64,000 nucleotides of DNA from a virus. The notes under the pieces were generated by a model. It did no database searches and had not been told where the DNA came from. It saw nothing but the letters and a program-made list of their open reading frames with translations. Of this stretch, positions 1 through 43,011 are shown piece after piece. The position numbers were made by a program, and so were the translations under genes. Location of the stretch: IMG/VR virus record IMGVR_UViG_3300027782_000035, one strand, 5' to 3'. Numbering within the stretch: the first letter of the stretch is position 1; the number at the start of each line of letters is the position of its first letter.

Positions 1-108
1 TTTTGTTTCTTCCAAAAAGATTTTCTCAAGAATGAACTGAAACGTATCATCGTTTACTTTAATAACATCAACTTTCATTCTATAGAAATCATTAAAGTCA
101 ATGATCAT
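1..108 (-). CDS. hypothetical protein, truncated by window edge (MIIDFNDFYRMK...)
   Basis: ATG at 106-108 overlaps the upstream stop (ATGA); frame open to window end. Confidence 0.5.
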   Translation of the reverse strand, partial: MIIDFNDFYRMKVDVIKVNDDTFQFILEKIFLEETK

Positions 109-332
109 GTGAAATCCCTTACGACATTCACTTTGATGATTTGTTGATCGCCAGCATATGCTTTTGCTGAGGACTCCTTAGGGAAGACCTTAACAACTAC
201 ATGCGACATATCATTTTCAAATTCAGAGAGAATCATGTATCCCTTCTGAAGACCTTTTGTCAAGGTTGTTGTTACCTCATCGGTGGCTGTAAATTTAGCT
301 TTTAGCAACGCTGGTACCTGCCTTTCTATCAT
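105..332 (-). CDS. hypothetical early protein
   Basis: 75 aa ORF with GGAG RBS directly downstream of the promoter at 364-392. Confidence 0.65.
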   Translation of the reverse strand: MIERQVPALLKAKFTATDEVTTTLTKGLQKGYMILSEFENDMSHVVVKVFPKESSAKAYAGDQQIIKVNVVRDFT

Positions 333-363
333 AATAAAATAACTCCAATTAGTTAATGATATA

Positions 364-17788: not shown

Positions 17789-17796
17789 TATTTATA
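17789..17796 (-). promoter_or_regulatory. T4-type late promoter TATAAATA
   Basis: Exact gp55 consensus in an intergenic gap. Confidence 0.75.
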
Positions 17797-17824
17797 AAAC
17801 TAAAATCGCCCCGAAGGGCGATTT
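17797..17824 (-). terminator. rho-independent terminator ending the modification operon
   Basis: AAATCGCCC-TTCG-GGGCGATTT followed by TAGTTTT. Confidence 0.8.
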
Positions 17825-17825
17825 G

Positions 17826-19010
17826 TTAGAAGAAACTTTCTAGACTTGGTATATCTACCTTATCTCGGACTTCATAAGTTTTTTGGCCATTAAACTGATA
17901 GACAAGATTAGCATTAAGTCTATCTCGCTTACCTTCAAGTGCAGCCTTTACTTCATTGGCCATGTCTGTAGCAGTTCCTACTGGTACGTTTTGACATACG
18001 TGGTTTAGATTTCTTGAAGGATTTAGCATTTCAAAGTCTTCAGGTAGGCCCATGATACTCATAGCCTCACGATAAGTCAGGTATCTATCTTCGGTAGGAT
18101 GAGTCAATAGATTCGGATAGTGCCCAACAAAAGCTCCAATATGACCTTTTGGCACAGTCGTAAGTCTTCGCATGATATTACCCTCACCTTGTAACTTGGC
18201 AAAGATTCTATCACATCTTTCCGCTGCTCGATCAAGACTTTGCGACCTCATCCAATCACCTACTTCATCGTACTTCTTACCTTTACGCTCGAGCCAATCC
18301 ATAGCATTATCGGTTTTCTCAATAATATTGTAAAAGTCTTTATGAGTGATACCGCCTTCTAGTTCTTCCAAAACATAACGATACATAGGATCCCACTTGC
18401 TTGGAATCTTCTCGTTAGTAACTACTTGCTGAGAAGCATTCTTAGACACACCATAGAACACGCTCTCGATTGTATTAAGAGGTTTATCAAAGTAGTTAAA
18501 CAGAGGAACAGTCTTACCTTTCCAAAAGAAATAGAAAGATCGTTCACGAATCTGAGGAACACCGTGCAACAATGACTTAGTCCTGTAGATAGACATTGTA
18601 TAACCATTGCGAGTAGCAATGTCATGTAGTTTATCTACAATAGGTTTACCAAGTTTACCTGCGAATCCTGGTGCATTCTCTCCCCATAATACCATAGGCT
18701 TAATTTGTTCAAGCACATATGTAGTTGTAGTATACATCCATTCATTGGCTGCAGCATCAGAACTAGCATATCCGCTAAGTGAAGATAATCCTGCGCAAGG
18801 ACATGTAGTTCCAACAACATCTACGTAGTGAGGATGTTTTCCACCTTCATCAAGTAGGATATATGGTACATCATTGTAGTGATTAACTAAATGAGAATCA
18901 TTTGATGTAAACGGAGTATATGAAAGTAGATAATCAGGTCTACTTCCAAATGCTGCGGTTTGACCAAGAGCTTGACCGCCAATCAAAGGGACGATAAAAG
19001 CGTGCTTCAT
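17826..19010 (-). CDS. atypical DNA cytosine-C5 methyltransferase homologue
   Basis: PC (TCPCAGLS), ENA, PQIRER, RYLTYRE motifs present; motif I degenerate (VPLIGG). Confidence 0.8.
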   Translation of the reverse strand: MKHAFIVPLIGGQALGQTAAFGSRPDYLLSYTPFTSNDSHLVNHYNDVPYILLDEGGKHPHYVDVVGTTCPCAGLSSLSGYASSDAAANEWMYTTTTYVLEQIKPMVLWGENAPGFAGKLGKPIVDKLHDIATRNGYTMSIYRTKSLLHGVPQIRERSFYFFWKGKTVPLFNYFDKPLNTIESVFYGVSKNASQQVVTNEKIPSKWDPMYRYVLEELEGGITHKDFYNIIEKTDNAMDWLERKGKKYDEVGDWMRSQSLDRAAERCDRIFAKLQGEGNIMRRLTTVPKGHIGAFVGHYPNLLTHPTEDRYLTYREAMSIMGLPEDFEMLNPSRNLNHVCQNVPVGTATDMANEVKAALEGKRDRLNANLVYQFNGQKTYEVRDKVDIPSLESFF

Positions 19011-20212
19011 AGGTTATCCTTTATCTTCTGCATCATTTCAGCAAAAGTATTCTCAGAGTCTTGATGTTGTTTATAGAATTCAAAAGCCATGTTGCGGTAT
19101 TCATCTCGCATAACACTATCCTTAGACAATTTAGCTATGAGATCATATGCTGGTTGCATATCATTATCATCAAGCCATACAGTGCCATTATCTTTGCAGT
19201 CGATTAGCTTGTCTCCATATTTACGATGAGTACAACGTTCACCATATGACTTACGGAACACTGGTACTACGCCAGTACATGCTACTTCACAATGAGTATA
19301 CTCAATAGAGCGTTGAATGTATCGTTCATCTAATACAGATAATTGATAACCAAATCCAACTCGTGACATACGTTCAAGCATTTCATCATTGATGAAGGGG
19401 CCAAACACATATGCTGGTTGATTATTTTCAAGATTAGTTGAGGCAATGTTCTTATCAATCATACCGTGGAACTCTGATAATTCGCGAAAGGCAAGATATG
19501 CTGGAGACTTTTCAATTCCTTCGAACGTAGTGATGCATCCATTGGGACGCAGAAATTCATTATGGAACTTAAACATCTGAACATACCCTTTCCAAGAAGT
19601 AGTACGGCCAATCCATTTATGCATAATTGGATCAGTGTAATAAATGTCTTTCCAATACTTATCTCTTACTGAATCGAAGTCCATTCCTGGTTGAAAGTTT
19701 AAAATAGTCTTAGAGTTATCCTCTTCAAAGAATGCTGTAAGACCACCACCTTCAGTTACCTTAGATACGTACTTAGCGAAATCGTTGCTAGTGCTATGGC
19801 CAAAAAGAATGCTAGCTTTTCCAATAGCGTCATCGATTGCAGCATTACGCTTGATTGAAAGAGATGAGTGATCGTGTTGAATGAGAACGATTGGTTTGAC
19901 AATTTCATTCAATGCTCGCTTAAATTGATTAATGCATTCCTCAGTGTGACCGACCGAGGGAAGACTATTAATAATAACTACATCGGCTTTGTTACAGCCT
20001 TCAATCATCTTATTAGTTTCTTCAGGTTTTGCAAACTTTAATTGTACAACATTAGAAACATCATGAGCATTCTTGCGAGTCCATGATTTATCCTTAGATG
20101 AAAAGACTACAAAGTCATAACCATTCTTGGTCATCCATTTAGTCTGTTCAACTGTAAACTTGGTAACACCACATCCTTCAATGCCCCGTCCCATAATGAT
20201 TGCTATTTTCAT
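19007..20212 (-). CDS. agt: DNA alpha-glucosyltransferase
   Basis: RGIEGCGVTKF, QHDHS, NFQP, WIGRTT.WKG, EYTH match T4 a-gt along its length. Confidence 0.93.
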   Translation of the reverse strand: MKIAIIMGRGIEGCGVTKFTVEQTKWMTKNGYDFVVFSSKDKSWTRKNAHDVSNVVQLKFAKPEETNKMIEGCNKADVVIINSLPSVGHTEECINQFKRALNEIVKPIVLIQHDHSSLSIKRNAAIDDAIGKASILFGHSTSNDFAKYVSKVTEGGGLTAFFEEDNSKTILNFQPGMDFDSVRDKYWKDIYYTDPIMHKWIGRTTSWKGYVQMFKFHNEFLRPNGCITTFEGIEKSPAYLAFRELSEFHGMIDKNIASTNLENNQPAYVFGPFINDEMLERMSRVGFGYQLSVLDERYIQRSIEYTHCEVACTGVVPVFRKSYGERCTHRKYGDKLIDCKDNGTVWLDDNDMQPAYDLIAKLSKDSVMRDEYRNMAFEFYKQHQDSENTFAEMMQKIKDNL

Positions 20213-20757
20213 TCTTCTTCGCTCCATTCTCCAGTTTTGTTTCTTTCATGAGCTGCATCTTTGCCATAGACTTCATCAGCATGAGTATCACATAGAGTTG
20301 TATGCCAACGCTGATAATAAGTACGTCCAGGAGAACCGCACTTTTCACACGTGCGATAACTCATACTTTCAGCAAAGGAAATGTAATTATAATGCTCGGG
20401 AGTTGCTGATTGAACATAGAATCGAAGACCACCAAACTTTTCTTTAATCTGAGAAGCAATTGGAACTAGTTCTTTTTCTTCTTCCATTTTTTGCTTTGCT
20501 TCGTCAAGATCTTCTTGCGTTATTGTTCTTGTTCCATAAAGAATACCGCCAACACCCACTTCTGCACGATAGTCATATCGTTCTTTGGCTTGATTATATT
20601 TGTTAGTCAACAAACCACAGAGAGTATCAATGATAGTAAACCACCCATCACCGCAATCAAATCCCCAGCACATAGCTGTTTGAGTCATTGGCGCATTTCG
20701 ATCTTTAAAGATCAGAGGGTACTTTGCACACAATAGTTCATCAAGTTCTTGTTTCAT
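20209..20757 (-). CDS. hypothetical protein with zinc-binding C-terminus
   Basis: QIKEKFGGLRFY and CEKCG...TLCDTH. Confidence 0.65.
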   Translation of the reverse strand: MKQELDELLCAKYPLIFKDRNAPMTQTAMCWGFDCGDGWFTIIDTLCGLLTNKYNQAKERYDYRAEVGVGGILYGTRTITQEDLDEAKQKMEEEKELVPIASQIKEKFGGLRFYVQSATPEHYNYISFAESMSYRTCEKCGSPGRTYYQRWHTTLCDTHADEVYGKDAAHERNKTGEWSEEE

Positions 20758-20775: not shown

Positions 20776-21228
20776 TTAAGATTGGATCCATTCACAATAT
20801 ATTCCAGCTTCTTTAAACATATCCCGCGTTAACTCAAATGCTTCTGTCCAAATTGCTGGTACCGCATCATCTGTATATATGAAAACTTTTTTAATACCAA
20901 CTTGGATGATACCCTTAGCGCATTCAGAGCATACTGGAAGACCGTATACGTACAACGATGCACCATCTAGCGATACGCCATTAAATGTAGCATTATAGAT
21001 GACGTTCATTTCTGCATGAACTACTAACTTATATTTTGTAGGACGATCGCTATAACGATCAGCACTATCAAGAATTCCTCGAGGGAAACCATTAAAGCCT
21101 TGTGATAAAATTTGACCTTTAGATCCTACTGCAACTGCACCAATCTTTCTACTTGGATCTTTACTCCAAGTAGAAACTTGCTTTGCTAAATCAAGATACC
21201 GCTGTTGCCATACCATAACGTTTGTCAT
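20776..21228 (-). CDS. cd: dCMP deaminase
   Basis: SKDP, GFNG, HAEMN, CSECAK. Confidence 0.92.
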   Translation of the reverse strand: MTNVMVWQQRYLDLAKQVSTWSKDPSRKIGAVAVGSKGQILSQGFNGFPRGILDSADRYSDRPTKYKLVVHAEMNVIYNATFNGVSLDGASLYVYGLPVCSECAKGIIQVGIKKVFIYTDDAVPAIWTEAFELTRDMFKEAGIYCEWIQS

Positions 21229-21934
21229 ATTCTTCTTTAGTAATAGTTAGTTCGCGTGTATTTAGATAATGATCTAAAAGATAGAATTGACGTTCATAAA
21301 TGTGAAGTGATCCTGCATTCCAATAGATCTCACCACGGTCATAGCTTTTTCCACGATAGCAAAGTTCCTGTACTACTTCTTCTAGTATATACTGTTGCCA
21401 AGCATAATCATTACGATAACCAGCCCAAGCATCATTGCTACGCATACTTACAACAGCATGAACTCGATTGTTTCGAATCATATATTGTACTGTATTAGTA
21501 CACATAAAATCTGAACGACCATTCTCGTTATGATCACCCCACATAGTAGGACGAGTGTAAATCATAGTTGCACGGCGTGAATCTGGACGATCTTCAAGTT
21601 CAGTTATAACATGAGCAAACTGATTATTGTTTTCATCAGAGTATACACACCAACCATAATTAGAATTGATGTAACCATCTTTATCGGCAACTTGTTTCCA
21701 GATCGCTGGAGGTCCACCGGGAATATCATTAACATTCAATGATTGAGACTTATACCAATCAAGTTCACGCTTAACATAATCTTCGTTAACAGCACCAAAG
21801 ATTAGAGGTGAGTTAGCCCAGAAGGACGCACCCATAATTTCAACAGTCTTTACACCTGACTTATCGGTTACAAACTTTTGTGCGCGATATAGGCGTGCAA
21901 ACTCTTGGCGGATTTCATGTACAGTATTCATCAT
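21191..21934 (-). CDS. gp42: dCMP hydroxymethylase
   Basis: DKSGVKT.EI, NSNYG, DFMCTN, MRSND, RNDYAW (Asp specifying dCMP), GSLH.Y as in T4 gp42. Confidence 0.95.
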   Translation of the reverse strand: MMNTVHEIRQEFARLYRAQKFVTDKSGVKTVEIMGASFWANSPLIFGAVNEDYVKRELDWYKSQSLNVNDIPGGPPAIWKQVADKDGYINSNYGWCVYSDENNNQFAHVITELEDRPDSRRATMIYTRPTMWGDHNENGRSDFMCTNTVQYMIRNNRVHAVVSMRSNDAWAGYRNDYAWQQYILEEVVQELCYRGKSYDRGEIYWNAGSLHIYERQFYLLDHYLNTRELTITKEEYDKRYGMATAVS

Positions 21935-22326
21935 TGCTTAAACTTTGAAGGAGTTAAATCAGTTGTTGGATGAGTTTCTTTGCTTATACGACGATTAAAG
22001 ATATCTTTGTTAGGTTCTTGACCATCAATATCGCCACGCATATATGCAACAAGGAATGAGGCATAATTAATCATGTCAATTGCAGAATCTTCAACCGATT
22101 CAAAGTTGACGTTACCACCTGCTTCCATAGTTTCCAATACAGAATACATACGAAGCATCTTACCATTAATGGTATCCAGAATAGTATATACGCCACGTGG
22201 ATAGTGATCGGCTTGGCGTACTCGGCTCAAAGGATTCTGATAATCCTGACCTTTACGTTCTTGAAGTGCAGCAGCTTCCAATAGAATGTTTGCTGATTCA
22301 CGAGTAAATTGTTTACCTTCTTTCAT
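21931..22326 (-). CDS. nucleotide-modification-associated all-alpha (MazG-like) protein
   Basis: KGQDY...K..R...ESVEDS.ID..NY pattern. Confidence 0.65.
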   Translation of the reverse strand: MKEGKQFTRESANILLEAAALQERKGQDYQNPLSRVRQADHYPRGVYTILDTINGKMLRMYSVLETMEAGGNVNFESVEDSAIDMINYASFLVAYMRGDIDGQEPNKDIFNRRISKETHPTTDLTPSKFKQ

Positions 22327-23228: not shown

Positions 23229-24197
23229 TTATAGAGCATTCTTATAGGCAAATTCTATGGCTCGAGAAGCCTCTACGTTAAGTGGTCTCTTGGCGTATCT
23301 ATTTGCGGTATCACGATCGAGCTGTCTCACAAGATCTACAATCTCATACTCAGTGATAGGATACTTATTCTTAATAGCATTACATGCAATTGATGTCATA
23401 ATCTTATAAATCATTGAGTAACGACCAGAACCATCTACTCCTGATATTTGCTTATACTCACTTACAAGTTTACGATTCACGAATGGACAATCGCCATATG
23501 ACTTCCATTCATAAGTTCTCTTATTACTCTGAAGCTGTTGCTGACGATGAGCTATGACTTCCTTTTGAATCTCAACAGGAAGCCTGTCAATAAAACTATT
23601 AGAAGAAGAGTTGTCATTGTATTCATGCTTTCTTAGAAGATCATCAACGTTAAGATACCCATTTGCGCGATGAGTAAAAATAAAATTGTAAGCATTAGGG
23701 TATTGCGCTGGGACGTAATACATCCTAGACAAATCTTTAGTCTGTCTATCTCCCACCATGCCAAATTCTGTGTTGAGTGCAAACCAAAAGTGTCGAATTT
23801 CTTCTCCCCTAACAGCTCTTGTAAGTGGGAACACCAAGCGGAACTTCGGCGCACTACGACTACTACTAGCAGTTGAATAGCAAATAAAATAGATATTAGG
23901 GTAAAGCCTAGCCAATTCATCTTCAAGATCTCCATCATATGTTGTACTGTCTACATCTAGTGCGGCCCAATTTGCCCACTCGATTACGTTAACGTTTGCT
24001 CTAGTTGTATTAGATTTATAAATCGCTGGAGAAATTAGAGGCGATGCTTTGTTAGTAAACTCACCGCGCTTAGCTTTATATCCAGGAAGAGTAGACAGAT
24101 GATACAACGACTTCTCTAATTTCTCGAAAGAATCGAAGTCAACTCGTGTATCTGTCTTGTTATCAAAGATAGACTTAAAGACGGTGAGGCTATACAT
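23229..24197 (-). CDS. AEP-superfamily primase/primase-polymerase
   Basis: ALDVD (DxD), YSTASS..PKFRLVFPL, D..SRMYYVP; near gp41. Confidence 0.7.
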   Translation of the reverse strand: MYSLTVFKSIFDNKTDTRVDFDSFEKLEKSLYHLSTLPGYKAKRGEFTNKASPLISPAIYKSNTTRANVNVIEWANWAALDVDSTTYDGDLEDELARLYPNIYFICYSTASSSRSAPKFRLVFPLTRAVRGEEIRHFWFALNTEFGMVGDRQTKDLSRMYYVPAQYPNAYNFIFTHRANGYLNVDDLLRKHEYNDNSSSNSFIDRLPVEIQKEVIAHRQQQLQSNKRTYEWKSYGDCPFVNRKLVSEYKQISGVDGSGRYSMIYKIMTSIACNAIKNKYPITEYEIVDLVRQLDRDTANRYAKRPLNVEASRAIEFAYKNAL

Positions 24198-27384: not shown

Positions 27385-27957
27385 CTATGTGTAATGCAGG
27401 TATGTTGATAGAATATATTTGTCATTGCTAATTGGCTTTCTTCCTTTATGAGGATACATCCACATAGGCGGGAATACCACCATTCTACCACACTTTGGTT
27501 TTACAAGACAATCTATTTCGAATTCTGTTTCTCCTCCTTTTTCAACATCATTCAGATAAGCAAACATTACCAGATATCTTGATGCTGATGGTCTATCACC
27601 TACATCTACATGCCAACCAAATTGATCATAGTCATTATTGAAATATCTTTTTAGTCTTGCGTCTTCAAATGCAAACTTAGGAGGAAAGAATTCTGTGCCA
27701 GTTACTTGTTTATAATGTTCGTAAACGTTTTTCATTCTTGCATAATAGTCTTCAATAAATTCTTTGAATGACTCTTCAGCAGTAATGTTAACTTCTACAA
27801 ATGATCTATAATCTTTTTCCCAGCTATATTTTGATTCTCGTCGAGAATTAAATTCATTTTGTTTTTCATTAAAGATGTCAATCATCTTCTTACATGTATC
27901 TGGTTCTAATACATCATCATACACTCTAACGTAATGACTTAGGCTTTGTGTGTTCAT
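27385..27957 (-). CDS. 2OG-Fe(II) oxygenase
   Basis: WHVD...YLNDV..GGET.F...PH.G...KY. Confidence 0.85.
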   Translation of the reverse strand: MNTQSLSHYVRVYDDVLEPDTCKKMIDIFNEKQNEFNSRRESKYSWEKDYRSFVEVNITAEESFKEFIEDYYARMKNVYEHYKQVTGTEFFPPKFAFEDARLKRYFNNDYDQFGWHVDVGDRPSASRYLVMFAYLNDVEKGGETEFEIDCLVKPKCGRMVVFPPMWMYPHKGRKPISNDKYILSTYLHYT

Positions 27958-30467
27958 GCGAAGAAATCCTCTAGTGTTGCTTCTTCTTCTGCCTTCCAAC
28001 CAATAGCATTCAGAATAATCTTAGCTGGGTCGAGGAATGATTTTTCAAACTGTGTGTCATTATCAATATAACGATGCAAGCCAAATTCAGCTGGAAGGAC
28101 TTGTGTGAATGCAATAACATCTTCGCGAATAGGATTCTTTGGATCAAGATATATGTACTTAATCTTCTCACCTTCTTTGATCATTTCATATGTATTTTCA
28201 AGACCGTGTTGCTTTAGCAAGTGATTATACAGCAGTGCTGCACGGGAATTCATTGGAGTTCCCTTCCTGTAGATTATTTTGGGATCCGAATATTGCTTGA
28301 GAGAGGATACACCGCGTGGGAAGGCTTTCTCTTCGACGGGTAAACTGTCAAAGGTATTCCTAAAGTCTCGTATAAACGATTGAGTTTCAAGCTCAGTACC
28401 ACTAATGAGAATCTTGAAGAGTTTCTCCATAGCTTCTCTACACGGCGCTGGAGTAGACGATTTGATCGCCTCGATCCCCATGATTTTAAGTTTCGGTTTA
28501 GAATATCTAACTCCTTCATTGTCCCATACATTAAGTATGTATCTTTTCTTAGCAGTCCAGATTCCACGATCTGCAATGCTTTCACGCTTCATTCCGATTC
28601 TGTGTTTGAATACATTGAGGTTTGTGCCGAGCTGGTGGAATGCGGTGTCGAAGACGTCCGTCTCGATCTTCTTACAGACCTTGTCGAGGAAGTCAACTTT
28701 CTTTGCTGTGGTTGCGTCGGGGACGACTGCATCAACCAAGTTTGAGAAGTTTGCATAAATTGAGTCAGTATCGATTGCGATAACATAGTCTTTATTACTT
28801 TTTAGTGCTTTATTGAGATACTCATTAATATATTTCTCACCCCACTTGATAATCAATTGACCAGTCAGGGTAATACCTTCTGCAATCTCCATCGTGAAGT
28901 AACGGAAGTACTTGTTGCCAAGTGCACCATAAAGCGAGTTAAGAAGAATCTTAATTGCTAGTTGTTGATTTTCGTAATGATTGATGTCACGTTCGATTCT
29001 ATAGATCTCAGCCTTGTTACTCTTATCAGCTAGTTCAAGTTCTTGTTTAGCGACAAGCATCTTCTTCTTGATTGCAGAACGTTCATCATACATTTCTTCA
29101 ATGATCTTTGGCATGAAGCCTTGCTTTTGCTTTGAGAAGAATTGACCAGTTGCAGCCATACACTTGTCACTGTTATTAGTCAAACCAACAAGACATTTAT
29201 CTACTGTAACACTAGGTTGAATATCACCTTTCAGGATTGTCTCAGGACTCATGTTCCATTGAACAATGATGTTAGGATATAGTGAGTTAACGTCAAAAGA
29301 ACATACCCAGTCGTGAATGCCACACTGAGGTTCCTTAACATATCCACCATCATACTCTCGCTTAAAACTATTATTGTTTGGAGGCACAATAATATTCTGC
29401 GCCATAAGAGTTCTGTGAATAAGAGAATCCCATATCGCAACAGTGCCCATCGTATCAGAATAGTTTACTCCAGCTTTATAAGCCATAGTTAGAGTAAGTG
29501 TAATCATAGCGATCTTATCTTCCATTCGGTCGACAAGGTCTACGTCTTTAATGTTATAGTCAATAAACTTTTGGTGATCCGTTTGATACAGAGTATGCAG
29601 TGTTCCATCGTAAGCAAGTTTGCGTTCACCGAGTACTACATATGCAATGTGATCAAGACGATATGATTCTTGCGGACCAAAAGAATAACCAAACTTCATG
29701 AATAGATCCATGTAGTCAAGTTGTGCAATGCCAATCAAATCATAAATCTGAACTTGGCCTTTACGCATTGTGACCATACGTTCTTCAACTAATCCCCAAG
29801 GTGAAAGCTTCTTCACATCATCTTCACCAAGCATACGATTAATTCGGTTTACAAGATATGGAATATCAAATGTACGAATGTTCCATCCAGTAATTGCATC
29901 AGGGCAAGTGAATTCATCATGCCAAAATGCAATGAGCTGCTTCAACAGATCTTGTTCATCCTTGCATTTAGTATATCGAACCTGAGAAGTTTTCATGATA
30001 GTCTTCTCAACATCGTAATCGCCTAGTGCCCACACAAAGTATGTGTCAAGGATACTATCCTTAATTGCAATAGAGATTACTGGATGTAGTGCTTCGTGTG
30101 GTTGAGGGAATCCTTGATCAGAAGCAACCTCAATATCGATTGTATGAACACGAATCTTGTTGCGTTCAAACTTAATTTCATTTGGAAATTCTTGTGCGAT
30201 GAATTGCGCAATATAGTTTGCATTACCATAGACATTAAAGTTCTCAACGTCTGAGTATCTTTCTACAAACTCCTTTGCTTCGCGCATAGAGTCGAACTCG
30301 ATAGAATCAACATTAACTCCATCGAGCGATGTGAACTTAGAGTTGCCTTTACCTTTCACATAGAGTGTAGGCTTAAAGGCAATCTTTTTCTTGATGCGAC
30401 GACCGTCTTGATATCCACGATATAAGAGGTTGTTGCCATAACGATTGACAGATGTATAGAATCGCAT
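27954..30467 (-). CDS. gp43: family B DNA polymerase
   Basis: DIE exonuclease, SFDVNSLYP, KILLNSLYG, DTDS, KKRY. Confidence 0.98.
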   Translation of the reverse strand: MRFYTSVNRYGNNLLYRGYQDGRRIKKKIAFKPTLYVKGKGNSKFTSLDGVNVDSIEFDSMREAKEFVERYSDVENFNVYGNANYIAQFIAQEFPNEIKFERNKIRVHTIDIEVASDQGFPQPHEALHPVISIAIKDSILDTYFVWALGDYDVEKTIMKTSQVRYTKCKDEQDLLKQLIAFWHDEFTCPDAITGWNIRTFDIPYLVNRINRMLGEDDVKKLSPWGLVEERMVTMRKGQVQIYDLIGIAQLDYMDLFMKFGYSFGPQESYRLDHIAYVVLGERKLAYDGTLHTLYQTDHQKFIDYNIKDVDLVDRMEDKIAMITLTLTMAYKAGVNYSDTMGTVAIWDSLIHRTLMAQNIIVPPNNNSFKREYDGGYVKEPQCGIHDWVCSFDVNSLYPNIIVQWNMSPETILKGDIQPSVTVDKCLVGLTNNSDKCMAATGQFFSKQKQGFMPKIIEEMYDERSAIKKKMLVAKQELELADKSNKAEIYRIERDINHYENQQLAIKILLNSLYGALGNKYFRYFTMEIAEGITLTGQLIIKWGEKYINEYLNKALKSNKDYVIAIDTDSIYANFSNLVDAVVPDATTAKKVDFLDKVCKKIETDVFDTAFHQLGTNLNVFKHRIGMKRESIADRGIWTAKKRYILNVWDNEGVRYSKPKLKIMGIEAIKSSTPAPCREAMEKLFKILISGTELETQSFIRDFRNTFDSLPVEEKAFPRGVSSLKQYSDPKIIYRKGTPMNSRAALLYNHLLKQHGLENTYEMIKEGEKIKYIYLDPKNPIREDVIAFTQVLPAEFGLHRYIDNDTQFEKSFLDPAKIILNAIGWKAEEEATLEDFFA

Positions 30468-33869: not shown

Positions 33870-34529
33870 TTAGAACTCCGAGTCAGCCTCGATTGCAACG
33901 TAGTAAGTTAGATCAGATGCAGTATGCTTGAAGCGAGAGATCTTCTTCTTAGAGATTGCTACATCGTAATCATTAGGAAGCATCTTCAGATTTTCAACCT
34001 TGATGTTTGCTTTAAATTCTTCAGAAGTCTGGCCGATCGTAACTTCATAAGCATTAGATGTTGCGTTTTTCTTATCGGATACAAGAACTTTAAGCTCAGT
34101 TCCATCACCAACGATTGACACATCACTTGCTTTAAGTACAGATGAAGTACGTTGAATCATTGCAAGTTGGGATGCATCTAGTCGAAAGGTTACATCTTCA
34201 CTTGGAAACTTTACAGTGTTTGGTGCAGATTTTACAAGACCTTCACCAGCAGCAAAATATTTAATCTTGCTAGTTCCACCATCAGAGACCATCACTTGCT
34301 TCTCTGAGAAGTCAAGATTCGTAGTAGTGAATAGCGATATTACATTTAGAAATTCACCTAGATCATAGATAGGAAAATCCATAGGCAGAGTTTCAGCGAT
34401 AGTCGCCTCGGCCATTACGTTCTTGCCTTCAGAGATCGTAGCCAATTTGTTTCCTTGCTTTAGAATAATGCTGCCATTAATGCTAGCAAAATTCTTTATA
34501 AGCGCAAGTGTTTCTTTACTTAGTTCCAT
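33870..34529 (-). CDS. gp45: sliding clamp
   Basis: LSKETL..IKNFASIN, IYDL.EFL, YVAIE.DS. Confidence 0.95.
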   Translation of the reverse strand: MELSKETLALIKNFASINGSIILKQGNKLATISEGKNVMAEATIAETLPMDFPIYDLGEFLNVISLFTTTNLDFSEKQVMVSDGGTSKIKYFAAGEGLVKSAPNTVKFPSEDVTFRLDASQLAMIQRTSSVLKASDVSIVGDGTELKVLVSDKKNATSNAYEVTIGQTSEEFKANIKVENLKMLPNDYDVAISKKKISRFKHTASDLTYYVAIEADSEF

Positions 34530-34869
34530 TGATATTCTCCTTAGAATATTTAACATCGTGTTCATATAAGAAAGCAAGACAACACATAGCATGTGCTAGG
34601 TGATTGATACCACTTTCAGGATCTATCTGCTCTCCCATTTTCCACGCCCAGATATGTCTTTCTAGAGCATCGAAATATCGATTAAGCGAATCTGGTACTT
34701 TCTTCCAGTTGTCTGGCTCGTATTTCTCTGCACCAAAAGTGAGAACCTTCACCATTTCAGCCTGAGCTAGAGGAGGTATCAATCCATAACGAAGCTTGCC
34801 ACCATCGAACTTTCGTCCGCCGGTAGTAGCATTTTGTGATTTCTTTATATCGGTTTTAGTTGCTGCCAT
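34516..34869 (-). CDS. dATP/dGTP diphosphohydrolase-like protein (DUF5664-like from recall)
   Basis: G.KFD.GK.RY.LIP, FGAEKY..NW, DPESG..HLAHA. Confidence 0.8.
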   Translation of the reverse strand: MAATKTDIKKSQNATTGGRKFDGGKLRYGLIPPLAQAEMVKVLTFGAEKYEPDNWKKVPDSLNRYFDALERHIWAWKMGEQIDPESGINHLAHAMCCLAFLYEHDVKYSKENINGTK

Positions 34870-42321: not shown

Positions 42322-42473
42322 TTATTACTCCTCAATTTTAATAACTCTCTGTAACCATAAACCTTGAAAAGGTATTCTATAAATTTGTCAATTTCTTCTT
42401 CATTCACATCAGGTGATTCACAATAGACTGATGCGGCTAGTGCGACTTTATCTAACCAATCACGATCATTCAT
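42318..42473 (-). CDS. hypothetical protein
   Basis: Small ORF between gp55 and gp47. Confidence 0.5.
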   Translation of the reverse strand: MNDRDWLDKVALAASVYCESPDVNEEEIDKFIEYLFKVYGYRELLKLRSNK

Positions 42474-43011
42474 CTTTAGGATCTTTTTCAATGAAGTTTT
42501 CAAGTGATTGTTCTTGTTTGATTTTCTTTTTCTTTTCTTTATTCTTTATAAAAGAATCATCGAATGTCGAGTTAGCTTGCATGAATGCAGCATAAGCATT
42601 CCTAAAATCGCCATCGTCATCATGGTCTTGTAATTCAAAGCTTTCAAATGCCATGTCTTGAATAAGCTTACCTTTAATATAAGACTGTTTCTTTTCCTTT
42701 GCAATTCTGCGAAGGAATGCAAAGTAGATAACTTGAGTAAAATACGAGAAAGGGTTTGAAGATTTATCGGGATCAAAACTGTTCATACACTGAATACAGT
42801 TTTCAATTCCATCTAGAACCATATCATCACGATATGAATAGTTGATAAAGTTTGATTTATGAGATAGTCTATTAGCTATCATCAGTACACACTTACCTAG
42901 ATACTCTGGAATTCTCGGTTCAGTAGTACCGTTATCTCGAGCATCCTTCAATCGTGTTTTGTATGTTTTAATAGCCTCGAGCATCTCGGCGTTGTTGACA
43001 TAATGGGCCAT
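42466..43011 (-). CDS. gp55: late sigma factor
   Basis: HYVNN, NFINYSYRDDM, NPFSYFTQ..YFAFLRRI.KE. Confidence 0.96.
   Translation of the reverse strand: MAHYVNNAEMLEAIKTYKTRLKDARDNGTTEPRIPEYLGKCVLMIANRLSHKSNFINYSYRDDMVLDGIENCIQCMNSFDPDKSSNPFSYFTQVIYFAFLRRIAKEKKQSYIKGKLIQDMAFESFELQDHDDDGDFRNAYAAFMQANSTFDDSFIKNKEKKKKIKQEQSLENFIEKDPKDE

Follow-up and report, generated by a model that had tools for sequence, protein, structure and literature searches.

A conserved C5-methyltransferase-fold protein with a rebuilt cofactor pocket in the cytosine-replacement operon of a T4-like phage, predicted to bind the sliding clamp

C5-cytosine methyltransferases are among the best-understood DNA enzymes, with a pocket for S-adenosylmethionine (SAM) that is conserved from bacteria to humans. 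The fold has been repurposed by a phage for a non-methyl group: CmoX of Synechococcus phage S-B43 is a natural DNA cytosine C5-carboxymethyltransferase (PDB 8YF3; PMC12783734). In phage C5-methyltransferase/TET (5mYOX) clusters, the methylase makes 5-methylcytosine (5mC) and TET oxidizes it to 5-hydroxymethylcytosine (hmC) after replication, and the signature motifs are reported to be kept (PMC8256090). Here, we describe a methyltransferase-like (MT-like) gene in a 64,000-nucleotide stretch of viral DNA, IMG/VR record IMGVR_UViG_3300027782_000035, referred to below as the window. The gene is an open reading frame (ORF) at 17826..19010 on the minus strand and encodes a protein of 394 amino acids (P0001). 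We tentatively favor the reading that this protein is a replisome-tethered C5 enzyme that would modify residual unmodified cytosines in new DNA, for which we infer the substrate, the donor, and the product. Covalent chemistry between Cys72 and C6 of the base, action on newly replicated phage DNA, and a role in the cytosine-replacement module look well supported.

The protein matches Pfam PF00145 with 53.1 bits (cut-off 22), though the alignment begins only at residue 60, and it scores 27.8 bits against the NCBIfam dcm model (TIGR00675), below the cut-off of 100.65. An AlphaFold2 model built from 109 diverged relatives has a predicted local distance difference test score (pLDDT) of 95.7. The model superposes on M.HaeIII (PDB 1DCT) with a Z score of 26.1 and a root mean square deviation of 3.3 over 279 aligned residues, residues 1..358 of the model lying on 1..324 of M.HaeIII. 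Comparison with M.HhaI, which an earlier reading of this DNA from the letters alone (the sequence-only reading) had proposed, likewise gives a full-length match, with a Z score of 25 over ~290 aligned residues (1..361 on M.HhaI 12..325). DNMT1 and CmoX can also be superposed over the full length, and DNMT1 is no closer than the bacterial enzymes. Judged by this model, the MT-like protein is a complete two-domain C5-cytosine methyltransferase fold with a large target-recognition domain.

The catalytic side of the fold is intact. In the translation, motif IV is C70-P71-C72 (18795..18803, minus strand, as are all motif coordinates below), in which C72 is invariant and P71 nearly so, and Cys72 is the predicted nucleophile. 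Motif VI is E111-N112-A113 (18672..18680), with E111 invariant and the string ENAP invariant in 168 relatives. Motif VIII reads Q153-I-R155-E-R157 (18540..18554), with both arginines invariant, and motif IX is kept as R309-YLTYREAMSIMGLPEDF. The four residues C72, E111, R155, and R157 do not vary across the 109 diverged relatives. The claim of the sequence-only reading that motifs IV, VI, VIII, and IX are kept is borne out in the translation.

The cofactor side has been rebuilt. The motif I region, canonically xLFxGxGG, reads FIVPLIGG at residues 5-12 (18975..18998). An hhalign alignment with E. coli Dcm places FIVPLIGG on DLFAGIGG, with V7 at the Phe of FxGxG, L9 at its first Gly, and G11-G12 at the GG, and the structural offsets against M.HaeIII and M.HhaI agree with this placement. 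The canonical FxGxG(G) loop for SAM is thus absent, and V7-P8-L9-I10-G11-G12 stands in its place. Strand 2 (L28-L29-S30 in the model) is followed by Y31-T32-P33-F34 and not by the acidic residue of motif II; the first acid is D38. Across the 109 relatives, position 32 is acidic in 27 and lysine in 13, while position 38 is an acid (Asp or Glu) at a shifted site that is conserved among relatives. Residue 32 was considered as a marker of SAM-binding loss in hmC-linked clades and rejected, as the position varies in all clades. Motif X, canonically GNxVP, reads Q340-N341-V342-P343 (17982..17993) and is preceded by C339; it retains the Asn but has Gln for the Gly. Each of the three alterations that the sequence-only reading had listed (VPLIGG, no acid after strand 2, and QN in motif X) proved correct. 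A miscalled start that masks a canonical motif I was also considered and rejected, since the homologues all begin within a few residues of MKHA.IVPLIGG and M.HaeIII aligns from residue 1.

We examined conservation in two sets, the 109 representatives, whose identity falls as low as 29%, and a collection of 168 distinct genes taken from viral contigs. Residues P8, L9, G11, G12, S30, aromatic 31, F34, N37, and D/E38 are invariant or nearly so in both, as are D54 (~88%), D64, P71, C72, A73, N89, E111-N112-A113-P114, and Q340-N341-V342-P343. In the 168 viral genes, P8, L9, G11, G12, and the string QNVP are without exception. Most family members also have an extra Cys preceding the PC of motif IV. 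Because the replacement residues are nearly invariant across diverged relatives, the altered motifs I, II, and X are a conserved state of the family and not decay. A pocket that is so strongly constrained binds something. As for the remodeled SAM pocket of the sequence-only reading, the altered state holds family-wide, but VPLIGG by itself would not prove that SAM binding is lost.

Indeed, an adenosyl group could still be bound by Ser30, the aromatic residue 31, Asp/Glu38, and Asp54. This bears on one alternative, in which the protein would be an orphan C5-methyltransferase of the ordinary kind, SAM-dependent and sequence-specific, whose motif I happens to be unusual. It would be of use in anti-restriction or on host DNA, and it would sit in its operon only through the clustering of DNA-modification genes. 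The same four conserved residues speak for it, as do the passed Pfam threshold and the complete fold with its large target-recognition domain; the failed match to the curated dcm model speaks against it, and its distribution, described below, does so further.

With the PF00145 enzymes M.HaeIII, M.HhaI, and E. coli Dcm, the MT-like protein shares the whole two-domain fold, the motif X Asn, and motifs IV, VI, VIII, and IX. Unlike them, it has VPLIGG for FxGxGG, QNVP for GNxVP, no conserved acid after strand 2, a clamp-type C-terminal tail, a virus-only range, and a tie to thymidylate synthase (TS) homologues that modify deoxycytidine monophosphate (dCMP). We do not file it as an ordinary member because motifs I, II, and X were tested and depart from the canonical form; the family represents a variant, so far undescribed, of a familiar type of enzyme. 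CmoX, like it a C5-methyltransferase fold from a phage, is the third-ranked match of the family profile among solved chains (E 3.9e-13), and its structure superposes with a Z score of 24.2. CmoX retains Phe25, Glu47, Phe48, and Asp69 as ligands of adenine and ribose, changes only the motif X Asn, to Arg350, and requires CmoA (PMC12783734). The MT-like protein, by contrast, has the motif X Asn, N341, but lacks the Phe and Glu ligands. Furthermore, a tblastn search with E. coli CmoA (E <= 0.01) found no CmoA-like gene in the window or in 344 related loci. We therefore rejected a carboxy-SAM reading of the CmoX/CmoA type, and with it goes the use of a SAM analogue of this kind, one of the options raised by the sequence-only reading.

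The C-terminal tail of the protein, IPSLESFF at residues 386-394 (17829..17855), is a predicted sliding-clamp-binding motif. The MT-like protein ends in ...DIPSLESFF, the phage's own DNA polymerase (gp43 type, 27954..30467, minus strand, phrog_262) ends in ...ATLEDFFA, and a late sigma factor that we take to be gp55-like (42466..43011, minus strand, with a weak Sigma70_r2 match) has QSLENFI near its C-terminus. A polymerase-like tail is present in 84 of the 168 distinct family members. Among the 2585 other ORFs of these loci it is found on 67, many of which encode polymerases or the glycosyltransferases lying just before the MT-like gene. We co-folded the sliding clamp of the window (gp45 homologue, 33870..34592, minus strand, PF09116) with residues 345-394 of the MT-like protein. 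The pair scored 0.62, whereas the best of three controls scored 0.02; 58 of 80 solved complexes attain that mark, as do 2 of 110 mismatched pairs. At least 85% of the contacts are common to the runs; they fall at residues 386-391 and 393-394, with a partner pLDDT of 46-48. Since structures of clamps with bound peptides are available for T4-type phages, this score may come from likeness to them only. The protein thus has what marks a T4-type clamp client, a C-terminal (S/T)LxxF(F/L/I) tail in common with the cognate polymerase together with predicted docking on gp45, and this gives model-based support for binding of the tail to the phage sliding clamp.

The nearest functional analogy is DNMT1, which rides PCNA to act on newly replicated DNA and carries a CXXC finger. 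The MT-like protein would work in the same way, as a C5-methyltransferase fold held on a sliding clamp over new DNA, though it is not a member of that family, and one of its relatives likewise carries a CXXC finger. Unlike DNMT1, it is single-domain, has its clamp motif at the extreme C-terminus, and has a different cofactor pocket. The clamp tail, the altered pocket, and the constant adjacency of a glycosyltransferase (see below) would also suit a non-catalytic, clamp-bound reader of cytosine or hmC, which might, for instance, recruit the glycosyltransferase, set its timing, or protect newly made DNA. However, the invariance of C72, E111, R155, R157, and Q153 in relatives as distant as 30% identity is hard to explain without catalysis, and the partner glycosyltransferases come from different families, so that a specific protein contact is unlikely. 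We consider such a reader very improbable.

The MT-like gene is the last cistron of a cytosine-replacement operon, as its start overlaps the stop of the preceding gene in an ATGA and a strong terminator follows its stop codon. The operon genes all lie on the minus strand. First is a MazG-like NTP pyrophosphohydrolase (21931..22326; phrog_1485, phrog_18404), a candidate dCTPase by inferred role, which adjoins the hydroxymethylase in most relatives. It is followed by a dCMP hydroxymethylase of the T4 gp42 type (21191..21934), a dCMP deaminase (20776..21228; PF00383, phrog_174), a 182-residue ORF with no function assigned, without a family match, and kept only in the closest relatives (20209..20757), and a DNA alpha-glucosyltransferase of the AGT family (19007..20227; phrog_2888). 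From the hydroxymethylase to the MT-like gene, neighbors overlap or are separated by at most 18 bases. The neighbor identities given by the sequence-only reading held up, the hydroxymethylase matching the T4 gp42 structures PDB 1B49/1B5D at E 1e-87 and the glucosyltransferase matching PF11440 with 319 bits, and so did the coupling to agt through the ATGA. The intrinsic terminator (17803..17824, minus strand), directly after the MT-like stop codon, has a 9-bp stem with 5 G-C pairs, a TTCG loop, and a T-rich tail. Beyond it, a TATAAATA box read from the sequence (17789..17796, minus strand), which we take to be like a T4 late promoter, begins the next transcription unit.

The hydroxymethylase has the Asp that specifies cytosine (RSND...RNDYAW). 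The window therefore contains the T4-type hmC module, that is, a gp42-type hydroxymethylase with Asp and a DNA hmC glycosyltransferase in the same operon. We considered a 5-hydroxycytosine pathway of the RB69/DLP3 type (PMC13326640) and set it aside as less likely: the TS homologue of the window scores 297 bits against T4 gp42, compared with ~24 bits against three other "thymidylate synthase" entries. With this score and an AGT-family glucosyltransferase alongside, hmC is the better reading. The cassette resembles the C5-methyltransferase/TET clusters in placing a C5-methyltransferase-fold enzyme beside DNA glycosyltransferases for cytosine hypermodification; it is unlike them in that hmC is supplied here by a gp42-type enzyme, before replication. 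A TET/5mYOX partner was rejected, since the only 2-oxoglutarate (2OG) oxygenase in the window (27385-27999) matches the general PF13640 and no TET or JBP family, and the gp42-type enzyme explains the hmC supply.

The window is part of an uncultured T4-like myophage. The gp43-type polymerase, the clamp, the clamp loader, UvsX, and a DnaB-like helicase lie on the minus strand, and so do the major head protein, portal, sheath, and terminase. Near-identical copies of the MT-like gene sit on contigs of up to ~164 kb. A megablast search of the region against phage records gave no match, and the nearest virus record among those searched, a 51-kb fragment, has no MT-like gene. Additionally, a ThyX for dTMP (PF02511, 5448-6155) coexists in the window with the gp42-type hydroxymethylase, and the primase adjoining the helicase (23229-24197) matches phrog_9765 and not the T4 gp61-type DnaG primase; from the sequence alone it has also been described as AEP-like.

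The same arrangement recurs in relatives. In 80 viral loci with homologues 48-97% identical, the order is hydroxymethylase, dCMP deaminase, a variable slot, and the MT-like gene, and the flanks outside this cassette vary, with UvsX in some loci and clamp-loader genes in others. The slot holds one or more of AGT, a 364-residue GT-B protein, UDP-galactopyranose mutase, NAD epimerase/dehydratase, UDP-glucose dehydrogenase, an inositol-phosphate-synthase-like protein, an FkbM methyltransferase, and a protein with a 5-hydroxymethyldeoxyuridine (5-hmdU) DNA kinase helical domain. The type of glycosyltransferase that precedes the MT-like gene thus differs between relatives. The sequence-only reading had expected co-occurrence with agt; a glycosyltransferase partner is indeed found, but it is not agt as such and may be any DNA glycosyltransferase, often with sugar-nucleotide enzymes.

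Several proteins of the slot deserve mention in their own right. The 364-residue protein (L032:8906-10000 and 11 homologues, phrog_14998, which has no family name) replaces AGT directly upstream in many relatives. Its predicted structure is a GT-B glycosyltransferase, with Z scores of 13.8 to glycogen synthase, 12.4 to T4 beta-glucosyltransferase, and 12.0 to T4 alpha-glucosyltransferase, and it is probably an unnamed family of DNA glycosyltransferases. Sugar-nucleotide genes stand in the hmC cassettes of relatives at L070:3141-4148, L038:4181-5125, L039:5122-5967, and L081:7394-9379. The presence of UDP-galactopyranose mutase, NAD epimerase/dehydratase, and UDP-glucose dehydrogenase in cassettes suggests that hmC in aquatic T4-like phages bears non-glucose sugars, e.g., galactofuranose or uronic acids. 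One cassette (L060:2960-7260) has, just upstream of the MT-like gene, an inositol-1-phosphate-synthase-like gene, an FkbM-type methyltransferase, and a 424-residue protein that matches the helical domain of 5-hmdU DNA kinase (PF18723, E 1.3e-6), and may represent kinase-activated hypermodification of hmC. Clamp-like tails also occur on proteins in the glycosyltransferase slot, namely LNLERFFS (L071:1102-2352), TTLDSFL (L076:653-2062), NSLEDFFS (L168:8757-10004), and QNIEDFL (L034:1850-2944), while the AGT of the window has none; clamp tethering may be general among the post-replicative DNA modifiers of these phages. Finally, a 130-residue protein (L032:8521-8913 and 23 homologues) lies between dCMP deaminase and glycosyltransferase in many cassettes, with a weak, below-cut-off match to the uracil-DNA-glycosylase superfamily (E 6e-4); the window lacks it and has the 182-residue ORF in its place.

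We next consider how closely the family is tied to cytosine replacement. A hidden Markov model of the hydroxymethylase was used to find TS homologues across 245 loci, and all 108 of those found carry Asp at the specificity position. Within 10 kb of the MT-like gene, such a homologue is present in 23 of 23 loci of the near clade with at least 6 kb of upstream flank, in 15 of 17 loci of the clade at 30-39% identity, and in 16 of 45 loci of the third clade. For the third clade, four whole records were searched, and in each of them an Asp-type TS homologue lies at another place in the genome, which also encodes a true, Asn-type ThyA. The co-occurrence with gp42 that the sequence-only reading had predicted is therefore strongly borne out, in the near clade by adjacency and in the third-clade records away from the MT-like gene. 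In the other direction, 45 gp42-type cassettes have a downstream flank of 6 kb or more, and 17 of them carry the MT-like gene. The dependence is thus one-way: the family occurs almost only with Asp-type TS homologues, while many gp42-type cassettes lack the family.

The family is large, with more than 2,000 clusters at 90% identity; at 50% identity there are 829 representatives with E <= 1e-3, of which 242 reach E <= 1e-30. It appears to be a virus-only branch of the C5-methyltransferase fold. A scan of 185,579 prokaryotic species (one genome each, with two peptide patterns, and not exhaustive) gave 16 loci, all on contigs of metagenome-assembled genomes that are full of phage genes, 12 of them with a hydroxymethylase. 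The same two-pattern scan gave no isolate genome and no restriction-modification neighborhood. In the literature searched, we found neither a description of the family nor an assay of any member. Among cultured phages, the gene is carried only by TIM5-type cyanophages and by Pseudoalteromonas phage XG4, and both agree with the link to cytosine replacement. In XG4, the hydroxymethylase lies 5 kb upstream of the MT-like gene. TIM5 cyanophages encode a DNA alpha-glycosyltransferase (PMC10087341), and their "ThyA" (S-TIM54, L001:5114-5956) shows Asp (GVPLDMFRY) in place of the Asn of true thymidylate synthases; from this residue, it is more likely a dCMP-modifying enzyme than a thymidylate synthase.

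Fused forms and duplicates also occur. P0215 (598 amino acids) carries a CXXC zinc finger (PF02008, 29.7 bits) at its C-terminus, whereas the long C-terminal extensions of P0191 (1462 amino acids), P0166 (768 amino acids), and P0174 (653 amino acids) had no Pfam match. Some phages have tandem paralogues of the family (L083:10001-12668, and also L010 and L011). The L083 pair neighbors a PIG-L deacetylase, WbqC-like genes, and ThyX, with no TS homologue within 10 kb.

Relatives that are far from a TS homologue or form tandem paralogues, as methylases of differing specificity might, would suit the ordinary orphan methylase introduced above. Against it, gp42, the MazG-like pyrophosphatase, and AGT should together leave few free C5 positions; the prokaryotic scan yielded the 16 phage-like loci and neither a bacterial isolate nor a restriction-gene neighbor; and the co-occurrence with Asp-type TS homologues holds genome-wide even without adjacency. 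We judge the orphan methylase improbable; like the non-catalytic reader, it is a poor match to the distribution of the family and to its invariant catalytic residues.

For the favored reading, action on residual cytosine, we propose the following mechanism. The enzyme would be expressed from the operon together with the MazG-like pyrophosphatase, the gp42-type hydroxymethylase, dCMP deaminase, and the glucosyltransferase. Its SLESFF tail would hook it to the sliding clamp, and it would move with the replisome along nascent DNA. A cytosine would be flipped out, and Cys72 would attack C6, aided by Glu111, Arg155, and Arg157, as in C5-methyltransferases. A one-carbon group would then be placed on C5 of cytosines that had been incorporated unmodified, so that no plain cytosine is left, and the enzyme would serve as a back-up to the nucleotide-level pathway. 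The donor could be SAM, held in the rebuilt pocket, which would give 5mC, or it could be another donor giving hmC, which the neighboring glycosyltransferase would finish.

We favor residual cytosine as the substrate because the MT-like gene is constant beside changing tailoring enzymes, because the pocket residues do not track the sugar system, because the enzyme has the residues of enzymes that act on a free C5, and because one relative, P0215, is fused to a CXXC finger. A CXXC zinc finger binds unmethylated CpG, and the fusion is a hint that the substrate is unmodified cytosine. The sequence-only reading had offered four options, which were hypermodification of hmC, removal of its hydroxymethyl group, post-replicative modification of residual cytosine, and use of a SAM analogue. 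Residual cytosine is the best fit among them, given the clamp tail, the constancy beside variable tailoring genes, and the CXXC fusion.

Several observations weigh against this reading. With Val and Leu at the Phe and first Gly of FxGxG, and Gln at the motif X Gly, the pocket is unlike that of every characterized C5-methyltransferase. Two glycines on which the donor packs in canonical enzymes are thereby exchanged for large residues, Leu and Gln, which argues against normal SAM binding. No acid follows strand 2 in this protein, the residue there varies across the family, and a profile of the N-terminal 80 residues found no match among solved chains even at E <= 10. In addition, the hmC pathway can run without the MT-like gene, as the count of 17 in 45 cassettes indicates and as T4 indicates too, whose gene set to our knowledge lacks it. 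Finally, a plain back-up methylase should be useful to any phage, yet the family is nearly confined to phages with a dCMP-modifying TS homologue, which also fits hmC as the substrate.

The latter points lead to a further alternative, non-methyl chemistry on hmC itself. Cys72 would add to C6 and the hydroxyl, or an activated form of it, would leave, giving a 5-methylene intermediate; a small nucleophile bound in the rebuilt pocket would then add to yield a 5-(X-methyl)cytosine, or the group would be exchanged or removed. Such a reaction would be the counterpart in nature of what M.HhaI does on the side without SAM. As cited in PMC7176277, Liutkeviciute et al. 2009 report that C5-methyltransferases add aldehydes to DNA without SAM, and this atypical reactivity of M.HhaI has been exploited for the hydroxymethylation of GCGC sites (PMC7176277). 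There is thus a laboratory precedent, but no natural example is known. That motifs I, II, and X have been rebuilt in concert and are conserved in the new form looks more like a change of ligand than like drift, and the near-strict one-way dependence on dCMP-specific TS homologues is the pattern of an accessory enzyme that needs the product of the pathway; hmC chemistry would explain both at least as well as residual-cytosine modification does. The MT-like gene is, moreover, always beside enzymes that act on hmC in DNA, and the 5-hmdU DNA kinase helical domain in one relative's cassette hints at activation of a leaving group. However, no gene for a dedicated nucleophile or activating enzyme is a constant neighbor, and the pocket is identical whatever sugar system adjoins, which would require one product shared by all these phages. 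Such an enzyme would also compete with the glycosyltransferase for the same hydroxyl, and the CXXC fusion points to unmodified DNA. On balance, we regard chemistry on hmC as the main rival, though rather unlikely.

A claim that draws on both substrates has a fair chance, though it is less likely than not: the MT-like protein may be the first natural SAM-free enzyme of the C5-methyltransferase fold, carried by the clamp, which either hydroxymethylates leftover cytosine from a one-carbon donor other than SAM or swaps the hydroxyl of hmC through a Cys-C6 adduct. The outcome would be an undescribed base or an equally undescribed DNA-level route to hmC.

The family is notable as a large, virus-only group in which a different pocket has been fixed anew while the covalent chemistry is retained, and which is nearly confined to phages whose C5 position is already filled. 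E. coli systems that place hmC in DNA are already in use (10.1101/2024.12.05.627091). With these systems and the cultured carriers, the family can be tested directly. If the MT-like protein is a clamp-riding proof-reader of base replacement, it would show a route by which these phages reach complete substitution, and it would be a viral parallel of DNMT1 on PCNA. If its chemistry is SAM-free, a laboratory side reaction would become biology, and the family might provide reagents for mapping and rewriting cytosine and hmC.

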